Assembly (NCBI GenBank): GCA_020724525.1
Contig: DYGU01000003.1
Location: forward strand, 38,105 to 102,104
Direction of reading: 5' to 3'
DNA from: Dehalococcoides mccartyi
Lineage (GTDB): Bacteria; Chloroflexota; Dehalococcoidia; GIF9; DYGU01
DNA length: 64,000 nucleotides
Made by a program: the position numbers and the translations under genes. The notes beneath the pieces are model-generated. The model did not search any database, had not been told where the DNA came from, and saw nothing but the letters and a program-made list of their open reading frames with translations. This document shows, one piece after another, positions 4,098 through 51,441 of the stretch; position 1 is the stretch's first letter, and each line of letters starts with the position of its first letter.

Positions 4098-4829
4098 CTA
4101 ACCTTCGAGCTGGACTTTGCCAGCTTCAATTAGTGTCAAATATTCTGTTTCCAGCCCAGCTATTTCAGAAGCTTCCTTATCAACCTCATAAGGCTCACCA
4201 ATAAAAATCTTGCCGTAGTCTTCCACATCTCCCCGTGTTGTATCGTCAATTCCAATAAATTTCTTACAGGCGTCAATGATGCCTAAATCAAAAGGTAAAG
4301 TGAAATAGAGGTCAGCTACCACTTTATGTATTCCCAGTTTATAGAGAGTTTCCCAACCACCCATCGCTTCACCTCTGTATTTAGCTACTGGTAACAAACT
4401 CAAAAGATTCTTTACTGTGAAACTCCCACTCCTACCGAAGACTTTAAAGGGGGCAATGCTAATAAGGTAGTCACTGGACAAGACAACATTGGGTACCCAA
4501 AAAGTAGGCACCGCATAAGGTTGCGGTAGCGGATTTTCCACTTCCACCCAGATGCAATCTTTAACATCCAGCATCAGCACTCTCGGATAATCATAGCCAA
4601 GGGCTTTATACACTTCGTAAATAGGATTACCCCAGGGAGTGCCTTCCAGAATAAGAATATCGGCATCACTTACCCGCCTGATACCTTCAATAACTAATCG
4701 TACTGTCTCCCAACTGGTAGTGACCGGATAGGGCAAAGGATAACTGGCACAGGGTTTAATTAAAACCCGCCGGGCTCGAGAAACTTGACTTGCTGGTGTA
4801 AAAACAAATTTAGAAGCTTCTAAAATCAC
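4098..4829 (-). CDS. DUF362 domain protein
   Basis: 243-aa ORF with DUF362-like composition, co-directional with and abutting mobB and moeA. Function unknown. Confidence 0.55.
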   Translation of the reverse strand: MILEASKFVFTPASQVSRARRVLIKPCASYPLPYPVTTSWETVRLVIEGIRRVSDADILILEGTPWGNPIYEVYKALGYDYPRVLMLDVKDCIWVEVENPLPQPYAVPTFWVPNVVLSSDYLISIAPFKVFGRSGSFTVKNLLSLLPVAKYRGEAMGGWETLYKLGIHKVVADLYFTLPFDLGIIDACKKFIGIDDTTRGDVEDYGKIFIGEPYEVDKEASEIAGLETEYLTLIEAGKVQLEG

Positions 4830-5485
4830 TGCTTTCCCTCAGACCTCTGTCTCAGCCAAATATTCATTTTCTTTATTTCTTTAACACCCTTAAGAGCCGA
4901 CATCATTCCCAGCAAAGTCTTGAATAAGAACTCTTTAACAAAAGGATTAAGGGGAATGGACTTATCGTTAACAAAAAGAACTATATCACCCTGACGCTTA
5001 CTAAGAAATCTGTGCTCAATAAAATCAGCTATCCCCTTAATATCGCTTGTAGAAAATTGAGCTACTGAGATATCCAGTGGTTTATCACTGACTACTGCCA
5101 GAAGTCCCTCTGGAGAACAAAGTAGACCACCTCCCAGCTCCTCCCGATAGACTTCAATCTTATAGCCTTTATCCTGTCTGTAGCCTTCCGTTAAAATAAG
5201 GTCGAAATCGGCACCAATAAAATAAGAAAGTTCCTCCAGAGAAGCATCGTGGTCTATTAACTTGACTAAAGCTAATTTTTGGGCAGAACTCAAAACCACC
5301 ACCTCAGCACCTGTTTGCGTAAGTCGCCAACTGTCTTTCCCTGAATAATCTAATTCAAAGTCTTGCCCCATGTGCTTTATCACAGCAATACGATAACCAC
5401 GACTTCGTAATTCTGGGACAAGTTTCTCTAATAGATTTGTTTTCCCAGCCGCAGATCTACCTACAATAGAAATAATAGGAACCAT
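4826..5485 (-). CDS. mobB: molybdopterin-guanine dinucleotide biosynthesis adapter protein
   Basis: MVPIISIVGRSAAGKTNLLEKLVPELRSRGYRIAVIKH, the P-loop MobB N-terminal signature. 4-nt overlap with the downstream gene. Confidence 0.8.
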   Translation of the reverse strand: MVPIISIVGRSAAGKTNLLEKLVPELRSRGYRIAVIKHMGQDFELDYSGKDSWRLTQTGAEVVVLSSAQKLALVKLIDHDASLEELSYFIGADFDLILTEGYRQDKGYKIEVYREELGGGLLCSPEGLLAVVSDKPLDISVAQFSTSDIKGIADFIEHRFLSKRQGDIVLFVNDKSIPLNPFVKEFLFKTLLGMMSALKGVKEIKKMNIWLRQRSEGKQ

Positions 5486-12634: not shown

Positions 12635-12654
12635 ATCCAAAAGGTTAAACCTTT

Positions 12655-12774
12655 AAGTCAGTCCAGCGAGGCTGGCAAGGGGAAATATGGCACAAAACTG
12701 TAATAGAGCTACACCCACATCAGAGCACTGCCCTCTGAAAACCTCTTGCCACTCAGGGGTAAGAGGTTTTCTTT
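12655..12774 (+). promoter_or_regulatory. PyrR-binding attenuator leader: binding loop plus intrinsic terminator
   Basis: AGUCAGUCCAGCGAGGCUGGCAAGGGG at 12656..12684 resembles the PyrR binding-loop consensus (UCCAG-GAGGCU-GCAAGG). Downstream hairpin AACCTCTT-N13-AAGAGGTT (12740..12768) is followed by TTTCTTT immediately before the pyrR ATG. The hairpin 3' arm contains the RBS (AAGAGG). Confidence 0.6.
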
Positions 12775-13323
12775 ATGCTTGAGAAAATTATCCTCTCGTC
12801 GGAAGACATCCAACGAGCCTTAGTCCGCATTGCCCACGAAATTGTGGAAAGAAATAAGGGGGCTCACGAACTCGTCTTTGTCGGTATGCAGACTCGAGGA
12901 GTACCCCTGGCAAAACGATTAGCCCACTTCATCCAAGAGGTCGAAGGTATCACCATTCCTGTAGGTGCCCTGGACATCACTCTTTACCGCGATGACCTCT
13001 CCTCTTTAAACCTCAAGCCAATCGTCCAGCGCACCGATATCCCCGCCAATATTACCGATAAAAGAGTCATCCTGGTTGATGATGTTCTTTATACCGGGCG
13101 GAGTATCCGAGCGGCTATGGATGCCCTCATAGACCTGGGACGACCTAAATCAATTCAATTAGTTGTGCTCATCGACCGAGGTCACCGTGAACTCCCTATC
13201 CGCGCCGATTACGCGGGCAAAAATATACCTACCTCCCGCTACGAAGAAATACAGGTCTATATAAAAGAAATAGACGGCAGAGACGAGGTGGCTATACTCA
13301 ATAGACAGGAGAATAGACTATGA
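12775..13323 (+). CDS. pyrR: bifunctional pyrimidine operon regulator / uracil phosphoribosyltransferase
   Basis: [29 protein letters not shown]...[20 protein letters not shown] (PRTase motif). 182 aa. Confidence 0.9.
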
Positions 13324-14330
13324 AAACAACACAACCAAGGGATAAGCCTAATGTAATACCCGAAACCTTTCCCCCACCACAAATAAGTATCTGGCGGCAT
13401 CAACACATCCTTGACCTGGACAGTTTTACTAAAGAAGAAATAGACCTCGTTTTTGAAATAACCGATGCTATGATGGAAGTGCTGGGACGAGAAATAAAGA
13501 AAGTCCCTACCCTCCGAGGCACTACTGTGGCAACAGTTTTCTATGAGCCGAGCACTCGAACTCGTGCCTCCTTTGAACTGGCAGCCAAAAACCTCAGCAC
13601 TGACGTCGTCAATCTTGATATCCCCAAAAGTAGTGTAACCAAAGGGGAATCTTTCCTTGATACCCTCCGCACCCTCCAGGCTCTGGGAGTTGATGTTATA
13701 GTCTTGCGTCATTCCCAATCTGGCGCTCCCTATCTGGCGGCTCAACACCTGGATATAAGCATAATAAACGGCGGAGATGGCTGGCACGCTCACCCAACTC
13801 AAGCCCTCCTCGACCTCTACACCCTACGCCGCCATTTTGGAGACTTAACCGGGCTAAAAGTAGTAATTATAGGCGATATTCTTCATAGTCGGGTAGCTCG
13901 TTCCAATATCTGGGGGATGAGCATTATGGGCTGTAAAGTAGTGCTCTGTGCCCCACCTACCCTTCTCCCCCGAGAATTAGACAACTTCATTATCCGCTGC
14001 CATCTATCTGGTATTAGCAAAGAGTATAAGTTGGAAGCGGCTCTTCAGGAGGCTGATGTCATTATGCCCTTGCGTCTGCAATTTGAGAGACAACAAAGTC
14101 GGCTTTTACCCAGCTTAAGAGAATACATTCAGCTCTATCAACTGAATTCAAAGCGGCTATCCTTAGCCAAGCCCAATGCCTTGGTACTTCATCCTGGTCC
14201 TATAAATGAAGATGTCGAGATTTCTCCTGAAGTCGCCCACAGCGCCCAATCAGTCATTGAAGAGCAAGTGACTAATGGAGTGGCGGTGCGGATGGCTCTA
14301 CTGTATTTGATCACCAGAGGTAAAAGGTAA
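13320..14330 (+). CDS. pyrB: aspartate carbamoyltransferase catalytic subunit
   Basis: [13 protein letters not shown] and HPTQAL carbamoyltransferase motifs. 4-nt overlap with pyrR. Confidence 0.9.
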
Positions 14331-14333
14331 GCA

Positions 14334-15680
14334 ATGTCCGAGGGAATACTTATAAAAGGTGGACGTATCCTTGACCCAGGTCAAGGACTAGATAGAATCG
14401 GTGACCTGCTCATCACCGACGGCAAAATCACCCGGTTCGGAGACAAGGGGGCAATACCGCCGGAAGGTTTCCATGCTCTTGATGCTAATGGCTTAATAGT
14501 CTGTCCCGGTTTTATTGACCTCCACTGCCACCTTCGCGAGCCTGGCTTTGAGGAGAAAGAAACTATTGCCACCGGGACAAGAGCTGCTACCAGGGGTGGT
14601 TTTACTACCATCTGCTGCATGTCCAATACTAACCCACCTTTAGATAACCGGGCTGCCGTTGATTATGTGAAAGCAAAAGCGGAGACACAAGGCACTGTTC
14701 GGGTCTTGCCCATAGGTTGTATTACTAAAGGCAGGAAAGGGGAAGAACTTACGGAAATGGCGGAACTGGCTGAGGCTGGAGTTATTGCCTTCAGTGACGA
14801 TGGAGAACCGGTAGTAAATTCAGCCATTATGTGCCACGCCCTTGATTACGCTTCTGCCTTAGGTCTGATGGTTATTGATCACTGTGAGGACAGGGCTTTG
14901 ACTAATGGTGGTCTTATGAACGAGGGATGGGTGGCAACTCGGCTTGGTCTAAAGGGGATACCAGCAGCCGCTGAAGAAATTATGGTGGCTCGGGATTTAG
15001 CTTTAGCCCGATTGACTAAAGCCAGACTTCATATCGCCCATATCACCACCGAAGGTTCCGTAGACCTCATCCATCGGGCTAAAGAGAAAGGAATTCTGGT
15101 TACTGCTGAAGTTACTCCCCACCACCTGACTTTGACTGAAGACAGAGTCATGGGCTGGCACTGGGGAAAGAATAATATCACCTACGATACTAACGCCAAG
15201 GTAAATCCACCCTTGCGTACTTCTAAGGACATTGATGCCCTAATCAGGGGGGTAAAGCTGGGTATAATTGATGCCATTGCTACTGACCACGCCCCCCACA
15301 CCTTAACGGACAAAATGTGCGAGTTTGGGATAGCTGCCTTCGGTATTAGCGGTCTGGAAACAGCCTTTGGTTGCCTGATGAGTCTGGTACCTGACGGCAA
15401 ACTTGACTTGGTCACTTTAATCTCCAAACTAACGGCTGAGCCTGCCAAGATTATCGGTACAAAATATAGAGAATTGGGCACTCTCAAAATAAGTGCCCCA
15501 GCCGATATTACCCTTTTTGACCCCACAAAAGAATGGATAGTTGACAGCCATAACTTTGCCTCTAAGGGCAAAAACACCCCCTTTGATGGTTACCGGTTCA
15601 AAGGCAAAATAATGGCAACCATATTCGGTGGCAAGATAGTTTATAAAGACGACTCAGTTAAACTCGAAATAAAGCAATGA
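14334..15680 (+). CDS. pyrC: dihydroorotase
   Basis: GFIDLHCHLREPG metal-binding motif. 448 aa. Confidence 0.9.
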   Translation: MSEGILIKGGRILDPGQGLDRIGDLLITDGKITRFGDKGAIPPEGFHALDANGLIVCPGFIDLHCHLREPGFEEKETIATGTRAATRGGFTTICCMSNTNPPLDNRAAVDYVKAKAETQGTVRVLPIGCITKGRKGEELTEMAELAEAGVIAFSDDGEPVVNSAIMCHALDYASALGLMVIDHCEDRALTNGGLMNEGWVATRLGLKGIPAAAEEIMVARDLALARLTKARLHIAHITTEGSVDLIHRAKEKGILVTAEVTPHHLTLTEDRVMGWHWGKNNITYDTNAKVNPPLRTSKDIDALIRGVKLGIIDAIATDHAPHTLTDKMCEFGIAAFGISGLETAFGCLMSLVPDGKLDLVTLISKLTAEPAKIIGTKYRELGTLKISAPADITLFDPTKEWIVDSHNFASKGKNTPFDGYRFKGKIMATIFGGKIVYKDDSVKLEIKQ

Positions 15681-16777
15681 CCAGAAAAACAATTTTAGCC
15701 TTAGAAGACGGCTCAGTCTACGAAGGTTATTCCTTTGGTGCTGAGACTACTACCTATGGCGAAGTCGTCTTCGATACCAGTATGACCGGCTACCAGGAGA
15801 TGCTCACCGATCCCTCCTTTGCCGGGCAAATTTTAGTCGCTACCTATCCCCTTATTGGCAATTACGGCATCAATGATGAAGATTTTGAGTCAAAACAAAT
15901 CCAGGTGAGGGGCTTCGTTGTCCGGGAATATTGTCCTGCACCCAGCCACTGGCAGAGCCAGAAAACTTTGCAGGAGTTTCTTTTAGCCAATGGCATTCCC
16001 GGGATTAGCGGCATTGATACTCGAGCTTTAACCCGCCGCCTTCGTTCAGTAGGAGTGATGATGGGCATTGTCACTTCAGAGATGACAGCAAAAGAAGCCC
16101 TGAAGGAACTTAAGAAATTACCCCGATATGATTCCACTGACTTTGTCAAAGAAGTTACCACCAGTGAGTCATACCACTGGGCATTAGCTTCCTCAAAAGA
16201 TAAGTTGGATGCTACCTTCCAGGTTGTGGTTGTTGACCTGGGTATCAAATATAATATCCTGCGCATCTTGAGCCGTCTTGGTTGCCAGGTAACTGCTGTC
16301 CCATGTACCACCTCAGCCGACGAAATTTTGAGCTTAAATCCTGACGGTATTGTCCTTTCTTCCGGTCCTGGTGACCCGGCTTTGCTCAGCTATATGGAAA
16401 AAACAGTAAAGGGACTCATTACCAAAAAGCCAATTATGGGTATTTGCCTGGGACACCAACTTATTGGGCGCGCCTTTGGGGCTAAGACTTTCAAGCTAAA
16501 ATTCGGTCACCGGGGTGGTAATCATCCCGTCCGTGGCCTTGCCACCGGCAGAGTCCATATTACCGCTCAGAACCATGGCTATGCCGTAGACGCTGATACC
16601 TTGAAAGGTGGTTTAGAAGTCAGCCACATAAATTTAAACGATGGCACCGTAGAAGGTCTGCGACATAAAGAGCTACCCACCCTGTCCATCCAGTACCACT
16701 CCGAAGCCTCTCCCGGACCAAGGGACAATGAATACTTGTTTGAAAGATTTTTGAAGATGGTAAGGGAGAAGAAATGA
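15677..16777 (+). CDS. carA: carbamoyl-phosphate synthase small (glutaminase) subunit
   Basis: CarA N-domain and GATase domain (GICLGHQLI...HRGGNHP). Overlaps the next gene by ATGA. Confidence 0.9.
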   Translation: MTRKTILALEDGSVYEGYSFGAETTTYGEVVFDTSMTGYQEMLTDPSFAGQILVATYPLIGNYGINDEDFESKQIQVRGFVVREYCPAPSHWQSQKTLQEFLLANGIPGISGIDTRALTRRLRSVGVMMGIVTSEMTAKEALKELKKLPRYDSTDFVKEVTTSESYHWALASSKDKLDATFQVVVVDLGIKYNILRILSRLGCQVTAVPCTTSADEILSLNPDGIVLSSGPGDPALLSYMEKTVKGLITKKPIMGICLGHQLIGRAFGAKTFKLKFGHRGGNHPVRGLATGRVHITAQNHGYAVDADTLKGGLEVSHINLNDGTVEGLRHKELPTLSIQYHSEASPGPRDNEYLFERFLKMVREKK

Positions 16778-18054
16778 TTCCCCAAGAAACGGTGGTAAAT
16801 ACAATTTCAGTAGTGAGCAAGGCAATAAAACAGAAAATTGAAGATTCCAGCTGGGATTACCGGGGCGAATTTACCAAAGCGTATACTCATGGGTTCCATT
16901 CTTATCCAGCTATGATGATCCCCCAAGTTGCCCGAAGATTAATACTGGAGTATAGCAACGAGGGGGATTCTTTACTTGACCCCTTTTGTGGTTCGGGAAG
17001 CGTTTTAGTGGAGGCAAAGCTAAATAAGCGTTACTCTTTCGGGATTGACCTAAATCCTCTAGCTATTTTGATTGCACGTGTTAAGACGAGACCTATTGAA
17101 CCTAAGCTACTTACTAAACAATTGTGGAATATTCTAGAAAACTTAAATGCCTTACAAATAGAAGAGATAGAAGAACCAAATTTTTTCAATATTCGTTTCT
17201 GGTTTAAGGAAATGGTCATCTTTCAACTAGCCAAACTTAAAACAATAATAAGCAATATAGAAGCAACCGAGGTGAGAGAATTCTTCCAAGTTGTTTTTAG
17301 CGAAGTTGTAAGATTAAGCTCGAATTCGCGTAGTTCTGAATTCAAATTATATCGTTACCCTTATGAGCGCTTACAAAGCCATGAGCCAGACCCAATAAAA
17401 CTTTTTAAGAACAAAGCCATGGCTAACATAGCCGGAATGGAAAAGTATTACAGCGAAGCTCGTGACCCATACTGGGCTCGACCTATTCTAGGTGACACAA
17501 CAAAACTTACCCAAGTTCTTCAACATCCGATACATATTGTAGTAACCTCTCCACCTTATGGAGATAGTCGCACTACAGTGGCTTATGGTCAATTTTCAAG
17601 GCTCTCTAGCCAGTGGTTAGGACTTGAAGGATATGAAAATGTTGATAAAAAATCTCTTGGCGGAATCTCAGTTGCAACCTTACATTGCTCGTTACCCTCA
17701 GAAACTTTAAGTGAGGTAATCAAGGTCATAGGGAAAGCGGACGAACGCCGGGCTAAAGATGTACTCAGCTTCTATATTGACTTGAATAAAGCTCTAATTG
17801 AAATCGATAAGGTGATGAAAAAGAGGGGAGTACTGTGCTTTGTTATAGGCAACAGGTCTGTCAAAGGAATCAGGTTGCCTACAGATATAATCTTAGCTGA
17901 GTTGCTGACTAATTTGGGGTATTGTCATCTGGCGACGATTATCAGGAACATACCAAGTAAGGCAATGCCTTTACGAAATAGTCCAAGTAATATTGCTGGC
18001 AGAGTATCTGACACAATACACAAAGAAAACATAGTTATTATGAGAAAGGGGTAA
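16774..18054 (+). CDS. SAM-dependent DNA amino-methyltransferase (N4-cytosine or N6-adenine; FxGxG...SPPY)
   Basis: Motif I LLDPFCGSGSVLVEA, then a 180-aa insert, then motif IV VVTSPPYGD. Visibly lower GC than flanking pyr genes. Sits between carA and carB. Confidence 0.65.
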   Translation: MIPQETVVNTISVVSKAIKQKIEDSSWDYRGEFTKAYTHGFHSYPAMMIPQVARRLILEYSNEGDSLLDPFCGSGSVLVEAKLNKRYSFGIDLNPLAILIARVKTRPIEPKLLTKQLWNILENLNALQIEEIEEPNFFNIRFWFKEMVIFQLAKLKTIISNIEATEVREFFQVVFSEVVRLSSNSRSSEFKLYRYPYERLQSHEPDPIKLFKNKAMANIAGMEKYYSEARDPYWARPILGDTTKLTQVLQHPIHIVVTSPPYGDSRTTVAYGQFSRLSSQWLGLEGYENVDKKSLGGISVATLHCSLPSETLSEVIKVIGKADERRAKDVLSFYIDLNKALIEIDKVMKKRGVLCFVIGNRSVKGIRLPTDIILAELLTNLGYCHLATIIRNIPSKAMPLRNSPSNIAGRVSDTIHKENIVIMRKG

Positions 18055-18061
18055 ATGTCCG

Positions 18062-19012
18062 ATGGCTAATGATTACAAACAACCGGTTGCCTTCGAAGAG
18101 CGGGGCGAAACTTTTGTTAACTTAAATTTAGTAAGAAATTCACTTCGAAAATTTGTGCTCGAGCGATTGAATTTTGACCCATCAGAAGCGGAGAAAGTTC
18201 CAGAATATGAAATCCCTAAACTATTCAGGAAAGAAAAGCTATCACTCCAAGATGAAAAAATAATTTACCAAGCTAAACAAAAAATTCCATCCCTCCAAAA
18301 AATCCTTAATGAGGCTATCGAGACCACTAAGAAAACAACACCCAAAATTCTTGCTCCTAGTTACATTAAAGCTCATTTCGGTGAATGCGTAACAGCATTA
18401 GAACCAAGGGCTTACAAAATTTACCTTGACTATGAAGAGAAGGCATTTCTATCAGCGATAGACTCATGGATTTTGCAGAATCAGAGCACTATAAACAGCC
18501 TTATCGAAAAAGGTTTATCACCATCTGATCTGGTTAAAGAAGCTATTAAATTATCTTACCCTTTAGTGCAGAAGCTAGAATTTGAATCTGGCCAGACACG
18601 GAAAGCCAGGGTAGGTAGAACCTTTGAATTAGTAATAGAGTATCTATTAGGTAGAATTGGCATCCCTTGTCAAAAGCCCCGAGGAAAGCAGCATAGGAAG
18701 ATTCTTAAAAGGGTAGATCTTGTCATACCTGACCAGATTACCGCAATCGAGCGTCCTGATAAAGCATATTTCTTATCTTATAAGCGGACACTTAGGGAGA
18801 GGTGGAAGCAAACTATCCCAGAACGAAAGCCAAGTTGGAGGGTTTTCCTCTTAACCCAAGATGAAGAACTAACTGAAGATAAAGCAAAAGAGATTGATGA
18901 ACTTGGTATGATTGTATACGTGAGAGATGAACTGAAAAATAAAGACTACTTAGCTCAAAAACCCTGGGTAAGGAGGTTATCCGATTTACCCAAAGATTTG
19001 AGCTTCTCATAG
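18062..19012 (+). CDS. putative type II restriction endonuclease (PD-(D/E)XK-like core)
   Basis: 316 aa, AT-rich, immediately downstream of the MTase. C-terminal half GRTFELVIEYLLGRIGIP...KRVDLVIPD...SYKRTLRERWKQ resembles an REase catalytic core (D...E.K plus TLRERWKQ-like motif). Family not identifiable without a search. Confidence 0.4.
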   Translation: MANDYKQPVAFEERGETFVNLNLVRNSLRKFVLERLNFDPSEAEKVPEYEIPKLFRKEKLSLQDEKIIYQAKQKIPSLQKILNEAIETTKKTTPKILAPSYIKAHFGECVTALEPRAYKIYLDYEEKAFLSAIDSWILQNQSTINSLIEKGLSPSDLVKEAIKLSYPLVQKLEFESGQTRKARVGRTFELVIEYLLGRIGIPCQKPRGKQHRKILKRVDLVIPDQITAIERPDKAYFLSYKRTLRERWKQTIPERKPSWRVFLLTQDEELTEDKAKEIDELGMIVYVRDELKNKDYLAQKPWVRRLSDLPKDLSFS

Positions 19013-19069
19013 AGCAAGTTGAGCTAAGCTTAGAAGAGTTTATAAAGCCACTTTGAAGGAGGGGAAGAG

Positions 19070-19294
19070 ATGGCTAAGAAATACACCATAATTCTAGAAC
19101 CCAATTATCCTGAGGAGGGGTATACTGTCAGGGTGCCTACTCTTCCTGGATGCATTACTTATGGGCGAACCAAAGAGGAGGCTCTGAAAAGAGCCAAGGA
19201 AGCCATAGAAGGCTTTATTGAAGGACTACAAAAAGCAGGCGAGCCAATCCCTGAAGAAGTTGCCCCAATAGAGTTGGACACGGTGACTGTTTAG
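19070..19294 (+). CDS. HicB-like antitoxin domain protein (UPF0150/DUF1902-like), no HicA partner
   Basis: MAKKYTIILEPNYPEEGYTVRVPTLPGCITYGRTKEEALKRAKEAIEGFIEG fits the HicB N-domain pattern (V.VP.LPGC.T.G.T.EEAL.N.KEAIE). RBS GGAGGGGAAGAG. No HicA-sized ORF nearby. Confidence 0.6.
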   Translation: MAKKYTIILEPNYPEEGYTVRVPTLPGCITYGRTKEEALKRAKEAIEGFIEGLQKAGEPIPEEVAPIELDTVTV

Positions 19295-19335
19295 GATAAA
19301 TTTATTGCTTGAAAAATTTCTGGAGGTAGTAAGGA

Positions 19336-22300
19336 ATGCCTAAAATCTCTAAAGTCCTTGTTATTGGTTCAGGACCGATAATTATCGGACAGGCAGCGGA
19401 GTTTGACTATGCCGGCACCCAAGCCTGTAAAGCTCTCCGGGAGGAAGGAGTTACTTCAGTGCTGGTAAATTCAAACCCGGCAACTATTATGACCGATGAA
19501 GGCATTGCCGATATTGTCTATATTGAGCCATTGACCGCAGAGGTCTTAGAACGAATTATTGCTCGAGAGCACCCTGATGGACTGCTGCCAACCCTGGGTG
19601 GGCAGACGGGACTCAATTTAGCCGTGGAATTAGCCGATGCCGGCATCCTCGACAAATATAATGTCAGACTTCTGGGAACACCCCTGGAGACCATCAAAAA
19701 AGCTGAGGAGAGGTCTTTATTTAAGAAATTGCTTATTGACATCGGTGAGCCGGTCCCAGAAAGTGACACCGTTCATTCTGTAGAAGAAGCCCGCCAGTTG
19801 GTAAAGAGGCTCGGACTACCGGTTATTATCCGTCCCTCTTACACCTTGGGTGGTACAGGTGGTGGTATTGCCCACACTATGGAAGAACTTGAGACCATTG
19901 TAGTCAGAGGATTAGCTGCCAGTATGAGCCATGAGGTGTTGGTAGAAAAGTCAGTCCTCGGCTGGAAAGAACTTGAGTATGAGGTGATGCGGGATGGGGC
20001 TGACAACTGCATTACTGTATGTAATATGGAAAACATAGACCCTATGGGCATCCATACCGGCGATAGCATTGTTGTCGCTCCCAGTCAGACCTTAACCGAT
20101 AAAGAATATCAGATGCTCCGCTCAGCCAGCCTCAAGATTATCCGAGCCCTGGGCATTGAAGGTGGTTGCAATATCCAGTTTGCTCTTACCCCTCATCCCA
20201 TAGTTGCCCGAAAATGGGCTCCAGACCAACTAAATGTCAAAAACAGCCAGTATTATGTCATTGAGGTTAATCCACGGGTTAGCCGTAGCTCTGCCTTAGC
20301 CAGCAAAGCTACTGGTTATCCTATTGCCCAGGTTGCTGCTAAAATTGCCATCGGTAAAAGACTGGATGAAATTCCCAATCGGGTTACGGGGAAGACCATG
20401 GCTGCTTTTGAACCAGCCTTAGATTATTGTGTGGTTAAAATCCCCCGCTGGCCCTTTGATAAATTCCCTTCCGGTGAACGTACCATAGGTACCCAAATGA
20501 AGGGAACCGGGGAGGCTATGGCAATTGAAAGAAGCTTCGAAGCTGCCTTCCAAAAAGCTGTCCGCTCCTTAGAATTCGGTAAAAGGTCTCTACTATGGGA
20601 AGATAATAACAGGGCAATGGCTAAAAACCTTAACGACTTTGCCTTACACCCAAACGACCTAAGGTTGTGGGCAATTATGGCAGCCCTAAGACGAGGCTTT
20701 AAACCTGAAGAATTAGCTGAGTACACGGGTATTGACCCCTGGTTCATATACAAATTTCTCAATATTGTTGAGATGGAAAAACGTCTGCTCAAGGAACCCC
20801 TGACTCCAGACCTCCTGTGGCGGGCTAAACGCCTCGGCTTCTCCGATGAACAAATCGGCACTTTGGCTGATAGGTTGCCAGAGCAAGTAAGACAACTCCG
20901 TCATAACTGGCAAATCCGCCCGGTGTATAAAACGGTTGATACTTGTGCTGCTGAATTTGATGCCGAAACGCCATACTTCTATAGCACTTATGAAACGGAG
21001 AACGAAACAGAGCCAATAAAAGAGAAAAAGGCTGTGGTTATCGGCAGTGGTCCAATACGAATTGGACAGGGTATCGAATTTGATTATTCCAGCGTCCATG
21101 CTACCTGGGCACTCCGTGAAGCTGGTATCAAGAGCATCATGGTCAACTCCAATCCGGAGACGGTATCTACCGACTTTGACACCAGTGACCGTCTTTACTT
21201 TGAAGCTTTGGATGAAGAGAGCCTGCGGGATATCCTCGAAAACGAAAGCCATTCACCAGGAAACCCCAACTCCACCCCACCATCTATCGTCCAGTTCGGC
21301 GGGCAAACAGCTATCAATCTAACTGAACCCTTAGCCCGTAGCGGCATGCCCATCCTCGGTTCCAGCGCTGAAACTATAGATATAGCTGAAGACCGTCATC
21401 GCTTTGAAGACTTTCTCAGCCGTTTAGGCATCCCCCAACCCCCAGGTGCTGGAGTAAATTCCTTACAAGCCGGGCTTAATGTAGCTAAACTTTTAGACTA
21501 TCCGGTACTGGTACGACCCAGTTATGTCCTTGGTGGCAGAGCTATGGAAATTGTCTACAATGAAACTGAACTAATTAGATACATGTCTCTTGCCTTAGAA
21601 TTAGACAGTCGACACCCCATATTGATTGATAAATACCTTCAAGGTAAAGAAGTTGAGGTAGATGCCATTGGCGACGGAGAACGGGTTCTCATCCCGGGTA
21701 TAATGGAGCATATAGAGCGAGCTGGCGTCCATAGTGGCGATTCTATCGCCGTCTATCCCGGCTTAAATCTTACCGAAGCTGAAGTAAACACCATTGTTGA
21801 CTACACCATCAAAATTGCCCTGGCTCTCCAAATTAAAGGCTTAATGAATATCCAGTTTGTCATTACACCCCCCACAAGAAATAGTCCGTCTTCCGTGTAT
21901 GTCCTTGAAGTAAACCCTCGTGCCAGCCGAACCGTGCCCTTCATCTCCAAAGTCACCGACATACCTATGGTCCGAATTGCTACTAAGGTAATGTTAGGCA
22001 TCAGTCTCAAAGAACAAGGTTATGAGACCGGCTTGTGGAAAAAGCAAAAACTAATAGCTATCAAGGCGCCCGTATTTTCCATGTCCAAACTGGCGGGCGT
22101 AGACAGCTACCTCGGCCCCGAGATGAAATCAACTGGCGAGGTCATGGGAATTGACTACACCTTTGAGGCTGCACTCGTCAAAGCTCTTTTAGCTTCAGGA
22201 CTTATGCTTCCCAAAAAGGGTAGCCTCCTTCTCAGTATTGCCGACCGCGATAAAGCCGAAGCCCTGCCCGTAATCAAGAAACTCTATTCTAAAGGCTACA

Positions 22301-22635
22301 GACTTTATGCTACTGAAGGTACCGCCATCATGCTCCAGGCAAGTGGTCTTTCTGTAAAAATGACCAGTAAAAAGCTAAGCGAAGGACATCCCAATGTTAT
22401 CGATATTATCAGTGATGGGGCAGTGGACGGGGTAGTAAATACCATTACCGGGGGGCGGGTACCTTTTCGGGATGGATTTTACATCCGGCGAGCCGCTGCC
22501 GAGAAAAGAATACCCTGCTTTACCTCCCTGGATACTTTCCAGGTAGCTGTGGAAGCCCTTGTTAATGGGGGACAATTCTTCACCATCCAAGCCTTGAGAG
22601 AATACTTTGGGGATTCCCTCCTGTCATTGCGGTGA
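19336..22635 (+). CDS. carB: carbamoyl-phosphate synthase large subunit
   Basis: 1099 aa, duplicated ATP-grasp halves ([31 protein letters not shown]... and [21 protein letters not shown]...) plus MGS-like C-domain. Confidence 0.95.
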
Positions 22636-22663
22636 AAATTGCCGGAAGGAGTAATATCACCTT

Positions 22664-23446
22664 TTGAAGCAAGTATTAGCTACCGTCCTCTCAAACCAGG
22701 AAATCATGCCCGGTGTCCATTTAATCCAGGCTGAGGCACCTGACATCACCGCTGAAGCTCGTCCCGGACAGTTCCTGATGGTGCGCTGCGGTCAAGATTA
22801 TGAGTTTATTCTGAGGCGTCCCTTTAGTATCCACCAGGCTAATACCGAAACCGGACAAATCTCGCTCCTTTTCGCCATAGTTGGTAGAGGCACTACCTGG
22901 CTGTCCCAACTCAAAAAAAACGATAAAGTAGACTTATTGGGACCATTAGGTAATGGCTTCTCCCTTGAGCCGGAAGCCAAGAATTTGCTTCTAATCGCTG
23001 GAGGGGTTGGCATCGCTCCGCTAATCTTTCTTAGCCAACAAGCCTTAACCCAAGGAAAATCAGTGACTTTGCTCTTAGGCGCACCCACCGCAGAGCAACT
23101 TTATCCCAAACACCTAATACCTGAAGGAACAAACTACCTAATCACTACTGAAGATGGTAGTGCCGGCAAAAAGGGACTGGTTACAGACCTTCTACCGGAA
23201 TTTATTCACTGGTGTCATCAAATTTGTGCCTGCGGACCAGTAGCTATGTGCCAAAGACTACAAGCTCAAAAACAACTTCAAAAGAAGAAATTATTTGTCC
23301 AGCTCTCTCTGGAAGTGAGACTGGGCTGTGGTATCGGTATCTGTTATGGCTGCAGCCTGGAAACCAGGCACGGTCAAAAACAGGTCTGCAGCGACGGACC
23401 TATTTTTGAACTCGATGAAATTCTATGGGATGAAGTAAAGATATAG
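22664..23446 (+). CDS. pyrK: dihydroorotate dehydrogenase electron-transfer subunit
   Basis: FAD/NAD-binding ferredoxin-reductase fold and C-terminal CGIGICYGC [2Fe-2S] motif. TTG start with RBS GGAAGGAG. No pyrD follows. Confidence 0.8.
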   Translation: MKQVLATVLSNQEIMPGVHLIQAEAPDITAEARPGQFLMVRCGQDYEFILRRPFSIHQANTETGQISLLFAIVGRGTTWLSQLKKNDKVDLLGPLGNGFSLEPEAKNLLLIAGGVGIAPLIFLSQQALTQGKSVTLLLGAPTAEQLYPKHLIPEGTNYLITTEDGSAGKKGLVTDLLPEFIHWCHQICACGPVAMCQRLQAQKQLQKKKLFVQLSLEVRLGCGIGICYGCSLETRHGQKQVCSDGPIFELDEILWDEVKI

Positions 23447-50727: not shown

Positions 50728-51441
50728 ATGATAATAAGACATAAAAAATCCTTTGTTCTAGGGATTATCCTCACCTTTTCATTCTTTATACTGTTATTTC
50801 TCATATTTTTACCTATATTTGGCGAGGGTAAAAATGGTCTCGAGTTTGCTGATGAAATGTTTAACAAACTGGCTAAAGGCTCATCCTATTTTATCCCTGA
50901 GGTTATAAAAAGTAACGAGAAGTTTATCGGTAAAACGTTTACTACCAGTATAAGGCTTGACACGCCTGAGGATGCTGAAAAAACAGCAAAATTATTTACT
51001 ATTGCTGGGGCAATGGTAGAAGTTAAGGGAGCCGAATTAAAGATAGCGGGGGACTTGGGTAAGACCCTTAATGGAGCTCTACAAGATGCCGATGTCATGT
51101 ACCATAATAAAGGGGCTGAGATTTCAGGTTTATACGGATATGATGAGAAGGCTGTAATGAAAAACTGGTGGCAAGCACTAAGCCAGATGGAAAAAACATT
51201 TGAGAAGGAAAAGATGATTGCCGAGGCTAAGATTGTATCCGATGTAAAAAAGAAGGCTATTGAGACAGCCTATAACTACTATAACATTGATGCCGTAAAG
51301 ATTAAAGATAAAATTGGTCTTACGACATTTATGCTAACATTCTATGTAGGCTATACAATTTGGTGGGGATTTGCTGTGCTTTATCTGCTGGATGGGCTGG
51401 GGCTTAGCGCGAAGAAGGCAAAGGTAAGGAAAGAGGTCTAA
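50728..51441 (+). CDS. hypothetical membrane protein (N- and C-terminal TM helices)
   Basis: 237 aa, 3 nt after the TSUP gene. No recognisable family. Confidence 0.45.
   Translation: MIIRHKKSFVLGIILTFSFFILLFLIFLPIFGEGKNGLEFADEMFNKLAKGSSYFIPEVIKSNEKFIGKTFTTSIRLDTPEDAEKTAKLFTIAGAMVEVKGAELKIAGDLGKTLNGALQDADVMYHNKGAEISGLYGYDEKAVMKNWWQALSQMEKTFEKEKMIAEAKIVSDVKKKAIETAYNYYNIDAVKIKDKIGLTTFMLTFYVGYTIWWGFAVLYLLDGLGLSAKKAKVRKEV

Follow-up and report, generated by a model that had tools for sequence, protein, structure and literature searches.

A probable PspGI/MvaI-like restriction-modification pair and orphan HicB between carA and carB in a Dehalococcoidia pyr operon

The restriction-modification pair and its operon

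Several features of the type IIP restriction endonucleases (REases) of the CCGG family (Ecl18kI/PspGI/EcoRII-C) have been described in detail. PspGI uses the catalytic residues E105, D138, K160 and E173 and the recognition residues Q94, R164, E165 and R166 (PMC2577326), and the residue pairs of the base pocket are E60/F64 in PspGI, R57/W61 in Ecl18kI and R222/Y226 in EcoRII-C (PMC2577355). Among the partner methyltransferases (MTases), the SPPY motif is confined to N4-cytosine methyltransferases, and M.PspGI, a protein of ~50 kDa that is similar to M.MvaI, has it (PMC2532716). Restriction-modification (R-M) genes are also known to insert with target duplication, with repeats spanning start and stop sites, and to insert into operon-like clusters (PMC2853133). 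The locus considered here lies in a 64-kb stretch of DNA, the window, from an uncultivated member of the Dehalococcoidia. In its pyr operon, carA and carB are separated by an insert of 2.56 kb with three co-oriented, tightly packed genes, encoding an MTase, a 316-aa nuclease and a HicB-like protein. The insert is very likely a conventional PspGI/MvaI-like type IIP R-M pair with an orphan HicB, carried as the cargo of a recurrent slot between carA and carB.

By homology and modelled fold, the 316-aa protein is a classical type IIP REase of the CCGG family. It matches the Pfam family EcoRII-C (PF09019) with 34.6 bits against a gathering score of 25, over model positions 33-157 of 165, and the PADLOC type II REase model (REase_II) at 5e-13. 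A sequence search of the PDB returned Ecl18kI (3.8e-13), PspGI (1.3e-7) and EcoRII, and no other matches. The AlphaFold2 model, built on 80 homologues (pLDDT 88.2), likewise matched only Ecl18kI (TM 0.64/0.69), PspGI (0.53/0.63) and EcoRII in Foldseek at E <= 0.001. All four catalytic and all four CC:GG-recognition residues are present, their identities having been checked (Table 1), and the recognition motif follows the catalytic lysine as K241-x3-R245-E246-R247. The 80 homologues show no variation at D219 and K241 and at least 90% conservation at E189 and E254; the mapped catalytic and recognition residues as a whole are invariant or at least 90% conserved. In addition, the local motif LEPRAYKIY resembles LEEKAFEIY of PspGI. 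The C-terminus, WVRRLSDLPKDL, is conserved even in archaeal homologues without hic context, so the REase reading frame is intact and complete. Because the E114/Y118 pocket is PspGI-like and not Ecl18kI-like (R57/W61), CCWGG is preferred over CCNGG as the specificity, and the predicted target is CCWGG, recognized with flipping of the central base.

The MTase matches Pfam N6_N4_Mtase with 67.7 bits against a cutoff of 26.7 and the PADLOC model MTase_II PDLC03322 at 1.3e-128. Its FCGSG motif (FxGxG, for S-adenosylmethionine) stands at residue 71 and SPPY at 259, with 188 residues between them. This is the alpha order of motif I, target-recognition region and motif IV. The classing of amino-MTases by motif order reportedly goes back to Malone et al. 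in 1995, and M.PspGI is an alpha-class enzyme. Since the alpha order is combined with SPPY, the product is probably N4-methylcytosine; JGI names some of the homologues cytosine-N4-specific. Many other homologues, of ~620 aa and ~50% identical (P0171-P0240), are fusions of a LexA repressor (LexA_DNA_bind plus Peptidase_S24) to this MTase family, and these occur mostly in Patescibacteria.

The insert is probably an accessory R-M module within an attenuated pyr operon, co-transcribed with its neighbors and translationally coupled to carA. The operon is regarded as attenuated because the PyrR element scores above its gathering threshold (60.6 bits against 54, E = 1.5e-6) and contains a 14-bp terminator hairpin (12737-12771) with a T-rich tail, directly 5' of the pyrR ATG. 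The genes pyrR, pyrB, pyrC and carA overlap or lie 3 nt apart, and the spacers along carA, MTase, REase, HicB and carB are, in order, -4, 7, 57 and 41 nt. No convincing + strand terminator was found in the insert (16774-19335), and a scan of the insert for internal terminators and promoters gave only weak consensus matches at chance frequency. Transcription of carB and pyrK, the downstream genes of the operon, must traverse the insert. Identical contigs with the same arrangement come from JGI, from NCBI and from several independent SRA runs, so it is not an assembly artefact. These observations agree with a first-pass annotation made from the letters of the window, which had described the three genes separating carA from carB, an MTase with FxGxG...SPPY, a PD-(D/E)XK-like core, typical of the nuclease fold to which the CCGG-family REases belong, in the 316-aa protein, a HicB-like third protein, an ATGA overlap of the MTase start with the carA stop, and an attenuated operon.

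Table 1. Features of the window, mapped residues, sequence divergence, and cargo types at the carA-carB junction of other Dehalococcoidia loci (handles beginning with L)
Feature	Position, residues or loci	Strand	Size or value	Source or remark
PyrR-binding attenuator leader	12646-12776	+		Rfam RF00515
pyrR-pyrB-pyrC-carA, upstream genes of the operon	12775-16777	+		ORFs; precomputed Pfam labels on identical contig
pyrR	12775-13323	+		ORF list
carA	15677-16777	+		ORF list; Pfam CPSase_sm_chain + GATase
Direct repeat, left copy	16736-16765	+	30 nt	Functional carA 3' end
MTase gene	16774-18054	+	426 aa	ORF list
REase gene	18062-19012	+	316 aa	ORF list
hicA remnant	19009-19056	+	Last 15 codons + stop	Similarity to L038/L056 hicA 3' end
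HicB-like gene	19070-19294	+	74 aa	ORF list
Direct repeat, right copy	19305-19334	+		Relic of original carA 3' end; carries carB Shine-Dalgarno
carB	19336-22635	+		ORF list, Pfam
carB + pyrK, downstream genes of the operon	19336-23446	+		ORFs, Pfam
REase catalytic residues	E189, D219, K241, E254		PspGI E105, D138, K160, E173	PDB-search alignment
REase CC:GG readers	Q178, R245, E246, R247		PspGI Q94, R164, E165, R166	PDB-search alignment
REase flipped-base pocket	E114, Y118		PspGI E60, F64	PDB-search alignment
MTase, window vs L091/L096			77-78% aa identity; dS 1.4-1.5	
REase, window vs L091/L096			73-74% aa identity; dS 1.1-1.6	
HicB, window vs L091/L096			86-90% aa identity; dS 1.05-1.3	
carA, window vs L091/L096			76-77% aa identity; dS 2.7 to saturated	
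carB, window vs L091/L096			79-80% aa identity; dS saturated	
CAP12/Pycsar-type TIR proteins	L063, L068, L070, L072			
Hypoth_Ymh proteins	L015, L018, L075			
HEPN AbiU2	L055, L071, L077, L079			
PIN protein	L087 to L090			VapB partner identified only in L088, L089
HicAB	L038, L056			
Schlafen/AlbA_2	L037			
AbiJ	L045			
GIY-YIG	L055, L070			
DUF559	L081			
MTase + MTaX1-HNH	L086			
8xMP membrane proteins	L030, L049, L065, L081			
DUF6308	L043			

The junction, the HicB gene and possible lateral spread

A comparison with relatives lacking the insert had been suggested in the first-pass annotation. In the closest species representative, L011 (carA 81% and carB 88% identical), the site is empty and the two genes overlap, the GTG of carB lying within the last carA codons. 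In the window, the insert is bracketed by a direct repeat whose copies match at 24/30 nt (z = 6.0 against shuffles) and of which L011 has a single copy. The translation of the right copy is the closer of the two to the end of the L011 carA product (YLFEKFLEMVRSES, then the stop), and the MTase ATG sits where the carB start sits in the empty site. As the junction is duplicated, initiation regions are available to both the first cargo gene and carB, and the C-terminus of carA is preserved. By analogy with the known behavior of R-M genes, the 30-nt repeat is best read as the scar of an insertion with target duplication. A carA 3' duplicate was also considered as a general signature of insertion at this junction and was rejected; it occurs in the window only and in 0/39 other cargo-bearing loci.

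The third gene appears to have a separate history. Its product matches Pfam HicB_lk_antitox (PF15919; 48.1 bits against 27) and HicB chains in the PDB (1e-5), and its 74 residues comprise the N-terminal HicB domain only, with no DNA-binding domain. At the same junction, L038 and L056 possess an intact hicA, whose 77-aa product matches Pfam HicA_toxin, and after it hicB (73 aa), and they have no R-M genes there; their HicB proteins, which are likewise without a DNA-binding domain, are 81-83% identical to that of the window. A tblastn search for an intact hicA in the block and the rest of the 64-kb window found none (best E = 0.15). A remnant that begins at the REase stop codon is identical to the 3' end of the L038/L056 hicA at 30/48 nt without gaps (binomial P ~3e-6), and its translation is IEQVELSLEEFIKPL plus stop, against LEQADLTLDEFTGLL plus stop in intact hicA. 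Only these last 48 nt, up to the remnant stop, are counted as remnant. A candidate extension of the similarity into the REase 3' end, in another frame, was rejected, WVRRLSDLPKDL being conserved in the archaeal homologues noted above. Because 48 nt of the hicA 3' end survive, the R-M genes appear to have displaced most of hicA, and HicB is an orphan antitoxin outside the R-M system. Estimates of selection on HicB gave dN (nonsynonymous divergence) of 0.05-0.10 and dS (synonymous divergence) of 1.1-1.9, for a dN/dS of ~0.04-0.07. Separately, a perfect 10-nt inverted repeat, 18949-18958 (CTTAGCTCAA) and 19019-19028 (TTGAGCTAAG), flanks the 3' end of the REase gene together with the beginning of the remnant. 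It may be due to chance, or it may be a recombination or structural site.

The composition of the insert is not uniform. The windowed G+C content (GC) is 0.47-0.50 in the flanks and drops to 0.36-0.42 across the insert. Gene by gene, it is 0.397 for the MTase (z = -2.2) and 0.385 for the REase (z = -2.6), against a mean of 0.459 for genes of the window, and just one other of 38 reference reading frames, 50728-51441, is as low. The HicB gene, at 0.464, is native-like, and codon usage by a codon adaptation-type (CAI-type) index is unremarkable for all three genes. The first-pass annotation had attributed low GC to the whole insert. The reading frame at 50728-51441 encodes 237 aa, shares the GC of the REase gene (0.385), has no Pfam match and may be another acquired gene.

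At least four further lineages of Dehalococcoidia have homologous R-M cassettes at this junction. Two of them, the L091 group and L096/L013, have MTase, REase and HicB after carA, with more cargo before carB; this comprises MNT/HEPN and a NucS-like gene in the case of L091 and unknown genes in that of L096. L111 has the R-M pair followed by a Schlafen-domain gene and no HicB, and in L114 the order is carA, a gene for a 255-aa protein, HicB, MTase and REase, which places HicB upstream of the R-M pair. A carA tree places species with an empty site or with different cargo in between the cassette lineages, and the empty-site relatives of L091 and L096 have a carA-carB spacer of 21-24 nt, not an overlap. 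In other phyla, the REase homologues are always neighbors of an MTase from the same family (407-424 aa), never of HicB; these pairs occur in varied orientations, near integrases or recombinases, and once with a helix-turn-helix controller-like gene. A search of IMG/VR for phage carriage of the R-M genes gave distant REase relatives only, at 27-33% identity.

The cassette seems to be younger than the host splits, which would imply lateral spread among Dehalococcoidia, although this inference is soft. Cassette dS is lower than flank dS in all three lineage pairs (Table 1); between L091 and L096 it is 0.64 for the MTase, against 1.34 for carA and 1.75 for carB. The first-pass annotation had proposed a horizontally acquired R-M-like module. 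An accessory R-M module with an empty site in L011 agrees with that proposal. The cassette is not a private, very recent acquisition, because the L091 group and L096/L013 carry the same three genes here. Of the two observations that the first-pass annotation had named together as contrary to its view, a position shared with relatives was thus found, but a native-like composition of the cassette was not.

L111 differs in another respect. Its carA is a 55-aa C-terminal remnant directly after pyrC (305-472), and an IS200-type (Y1_Tnp) transposase gene (4190-4885) precedes carB. This locus could be a degenerate or a second pyr locus.

Activity and alternative readings

If the R-M pair functions as its family membership predicts, transcription of the block would start at the PyrR-attenuated pyr promoter, as part of the polycistron. 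Translation would begin with the MTase, whose start is coupled to the carA stop and whose product would methylate N4 of a cytosine in CCWGG. A REase dimer would read the CC:GG half sites with Q178 and R245-E246-R247, flip the central W pair into the E114/Y118 pocket and cut unmethylated CCWGG with E189, D219, K241 and E254. Loss of the cassette would then leave sites unprotected and lead to post-segregational killing, which would help to retain the insert in an indispensable operon. As for the order of events, hicAB would have been an earlier resident of the slot, and the arrival of the R-M genes would have deleted hicA save for its last 15 codons, with HicB, a harmless antitoxin, retained under purifying selection. 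In the lineage of the window, the cassette would have entered an L011-like overlapping carA/carB junction and duplicated ~30-40 nt of it, preserving the carA C-terminus and the carB ribosome-binding region.

Several observations weigh against parts of this account. The repeat is short (30 nt), 80% identical and weaker than the published long target duplications, and sliding-window identity detected no donor-derived mosaic in the carA 3' and carB 5' flanks; homology-facilitated illegitimate recombination is a conjecture for this reason. The argument that the cassette is younger than its flanks is softened by dS values near saturation. The MTase start is ambiguous between ATG 16774 and GTG 16813, and the Met1 of most homologues (408-413 aa) aligns with the latter. 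ATG 16774, which overlaps the carA stop as ATGA and has a GGGAG Shine-Dalgarno sequence 5 nt upstream, is favored because L111, an independent lineage, shares both the overlap (with its carA remnant) and the N-terminus MI(P/S)QE. Finally, the 64-kb window contains 188 CCWGG sites against 192 expected. Since CCWGG is at expectation while other palindromes are avoided, long-standing strong restriction of this sequence is not evident.

CCSGG and CCNGG are likewise at expectation in the window, and avoidance of CCWGG was dropped as a sign of REase activity, the counts giving no support either way. The palindromes strongly avoided in the window, relative to Markov expectation, are CTAG (0.14), GGCC (0.15), CAGCTG (0.22), GATC (0.23) and TGCA (0.43). 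Among relatives the value for GGCC ranges from 0.02 to 0.83.

The site counts are one basis for the alternative that fares best, that the system no longer restricts, being either a methylase left as an orphan because its nuclease is inactive or hardly expressed, or a decaying relic. The strong avoidance of other palindromes but not of CCWGG would fit it, as would the lack of a controller protein and of a dedicated promoter, and expression could be low at a downstream position in a biosynthetic operon under attenuation. However, the MTase and REase reading frames are full length relative to their homologues and the catalytic residues are all intact. Additionally, dN/dS is below ~0.15 for MTase, REase and HicB, and for the REase it is ~0.1-0.15 across lineages, which points to a maintained function. 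Purifying selection, intact motifs and full-length reading frames together argue for maintained R-M function, and loss of restriction is considered unlikely.

Slightly less likely still is an old cassette, inherited vertically and repeatedly lost, with a methylase perhaps domesticated for a role such as epigenetic control and not part of a mobile selfish module. The same genes do occur at the same junction in several lineages, the amino-acid identities of MTase (77-78%) and REase (73-74%) are close to those of carA (76-77%) and carB (79-80%), codon usage is host-like, and the insert is fixed in every contig of the window population. In contrast, the site is empty in L011 and in most of the L091/L096 clade, and the empty sites of the two clades differ, with an overlap in one and a 21-24-nt spacer in the other. 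The duplication scar is found in the window only, and left junctions and gene orders vary among lineages. The lower dS of the cassette in all three lineage pairs, and a GC ~8 points below the flanks, also speak against this reading.

That the three genes form one novel defense system, with HicB as partner, regulator or antitoxin of the MTase-nuclease pair, is highly improbable. In its favor, HicB is under strong purifying selection, and no fewer than four lineages have all three genes side by side (the window, the L091 group, L096/L013, L114). Against it, the REase, with its full set of catalytic and recognition motifs, is of the classical type IIP, the window HicB lacks a DNA-binding domain, and the REase and HicB genes are separated by a hicA remnant. 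The trio is argued not to be one system because the R-M pair occurs without HicB elsewhere (including L111), HicB occurs with HicA and without R-M in L038 and L056, and the gene order is reversed in L114. The first-pass suggestion of an uncharacterized defense system thus gives way to a textbook CCGG-family REase and a separable HicB. As a system, the R-M cassette is ordinary; it is of moderate interest as an instance of a class-wide slot inside an operon.

The carA-carB slot and comparison with known systems

The slot itself is the more interesting result. The sampling of carA-carB in Dehalococcoidia covered the best 80 genomes, and the survey rests on 67 species-representative genomes with carA and the carB start on one contig. 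In 37/67 species the two genes are separated by 0.3-4 kb, so that the usual adjacency assumed by the first-pass annotation does not describe this class. The inserted cargo of these 37 species is lower in GC than the flanks in every case, and its reading frames are nearly all co-oriented. The cargo types are listed in Table 1; several cargo proteins have no family match, and for several PADLOC gives candidate systems (PDC-S35, PDC-S32 and PDC-S50). Among the cargo reading frames scanned with Pfam, which did not include some small ones, no integrase was found, and the only mobility gene seen in the slot is the IS200-type transposase of L111. A literature search found no published carA-carB hotspot and no published Dehalococcoidia defense islands. 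A preprint on Dolosigranulum was dropped as a precedent, as it makes no mention of carA or carB.

Other junctions of the operon are occupied far less often. Gaps above 250 bp were found at pyrR-pyrB in 0/50 loci, at carB-pyrK in 0/31 and at pyrC-carA in 7/60, and the apparent ~380-nt gap between pyrB and pyrC is a fused PyrI domain. The counts for carA-carB come from the 67-genome survey; the junction-gap comparison mis-merged high-scoring segment pairs of the carB internal repeat. The junction between pyrC and carA is a minor second variable site, where the 7/60 loci have 250-950 bp (L043, L064, L065, L069, L079 and L090) or, in L046, 3.3 kb.

Two groups of cargo deserve separate mention. Archaeal-type phosphoenolpyruvate (PEP) carboxylases occur in the slot at L038:10734-12254 and L072:10110-11564, and a putative carbonic anhydrase at L020:3630-4061. 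Bicarbonate is a substrate of carbamoyl-phosphate synthetase, and this cargo may be functionally linked to its neighbors. Also, an N-terminal module of ~100 aa without a Pfam match is found on the TIR protein L063:10210-11340 and on the Hypoth_Ymh protein L015:2361-3122. The same module stands alone, as 94-103 aa, at L049:10099-10389, L073:7990-8274 and L084:10097-10408, and occurs in L114:122-889. It has the look of a common sensor or adaptor to which different effectors can be attached.

Tentatively, and with low confidence, the carA-carB junction can be proposed as a class-wide, integrase-free slot in which promoterless defense and toxin-antitoxin (TA) genes are swapped via the conserved flanks and expressed under PyrR attenuation. 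If so, immune-gene expression would be tied to pyrimidine status, for example rising when phage replication drains the uridine nucleotides UMP and UTP. Free-standing homing endonucleases drive break-induced conversion between conserved phage genes. By analogy, the endonucleases among the cargo (GIY-YIG, HNH, DUF559 and the REases) might drive exchange by break-induced gene conversion. The observation that over half of the sampled Dehalococcoidia species have small defense or TA genes lodged between the two genes that encode the subunits of carbamoyl-phosphate synthetase offers a fixed, easily found address for mining new defense genes in an uncultivated class. The slot is also a natural test of whether defense genes exploit their operon context via PyrR control.

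Defense hotspots flanked by core genes are known in other bacteria, where constant flanks border variable, low-GC defense or TA cargo with a patchy distribution. The carA-carB slot resembles them in its constant flanks, in its variable, low-GC cargo rich in defense and TA genes, and in its patchiness. It differs in lying inside an operon, between the genes for two subunits of one enzyme, in cargo genes that are nearly always co-oriented and closely packed, as though they lacked promoters, in the small size of the inserts (0.3-4 kb), and in that no integrase, tRNA or att-type feature was seen. With the hicAB type II TA modules, the window shares the N-terminal domain of HicB and a junction occupied by complete pairs in L038 and L056. 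Its hicA, however, is cut to 48 nt, and what is left is not a TA system.

The published long target duplications (Nobusato et al., 2000; Furuta, Abe and Kobayashi, 2010, PMC2853133) also have direct repeats flanking R-M genes, of which a relative with an empty site has one copy. As in those cases, the repeat of the window spans a stop/start junction, the neighboring genes stay intact and the unit contains no transposase or integrase. However, the published repeats measure 46 to ~420 bp and are mostly above 90% identical (PMC2853133), against 30 nt and 80% here; the unit of the window also includes an unrelated orphan antitoxin, and its slot hosts many other types of cargo. The cassette is thus a clean example of R-M genes lodging between translationally coupled genes by junction duplication.

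As an enzyme system, the closest relatives of the cassette are the PspGI R-M system (CCWGG), Ecl18kI/SsoII (CCNGG) and EcoRII-C, with which its REase shares fold and Pfam family. The identical catalytic E-D-K-E, the Q...R-E-R recognition residues and the pocket of Glu plus an aromatic residue are shared with PspGI in particular. The partner MTase, of ~410-430 aa and with SPPY, resembles M.PspGI and M.MvaI as these have been described (PMC2532716, PMC2577326, PMC2577355). Despite these similarities, the REase is only ~20-22% identical to the solved Ecl18kI, PspGI and EcoRII enzymes, and it possesses an additional helical N-terminal region of ~60-100 residues. Unlike PspGI, the cassette belongs to a bacterial host of the Dehalococcoidia and not to Pyrococcus, and it is arranged with the MTase before the REase in a biosynthetic operon and has neither a dedicated promoter nor a controller protein. 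Overall, it adds a bacterial member from a mesophilic lineage to the PspGI/Ecl18kI family.

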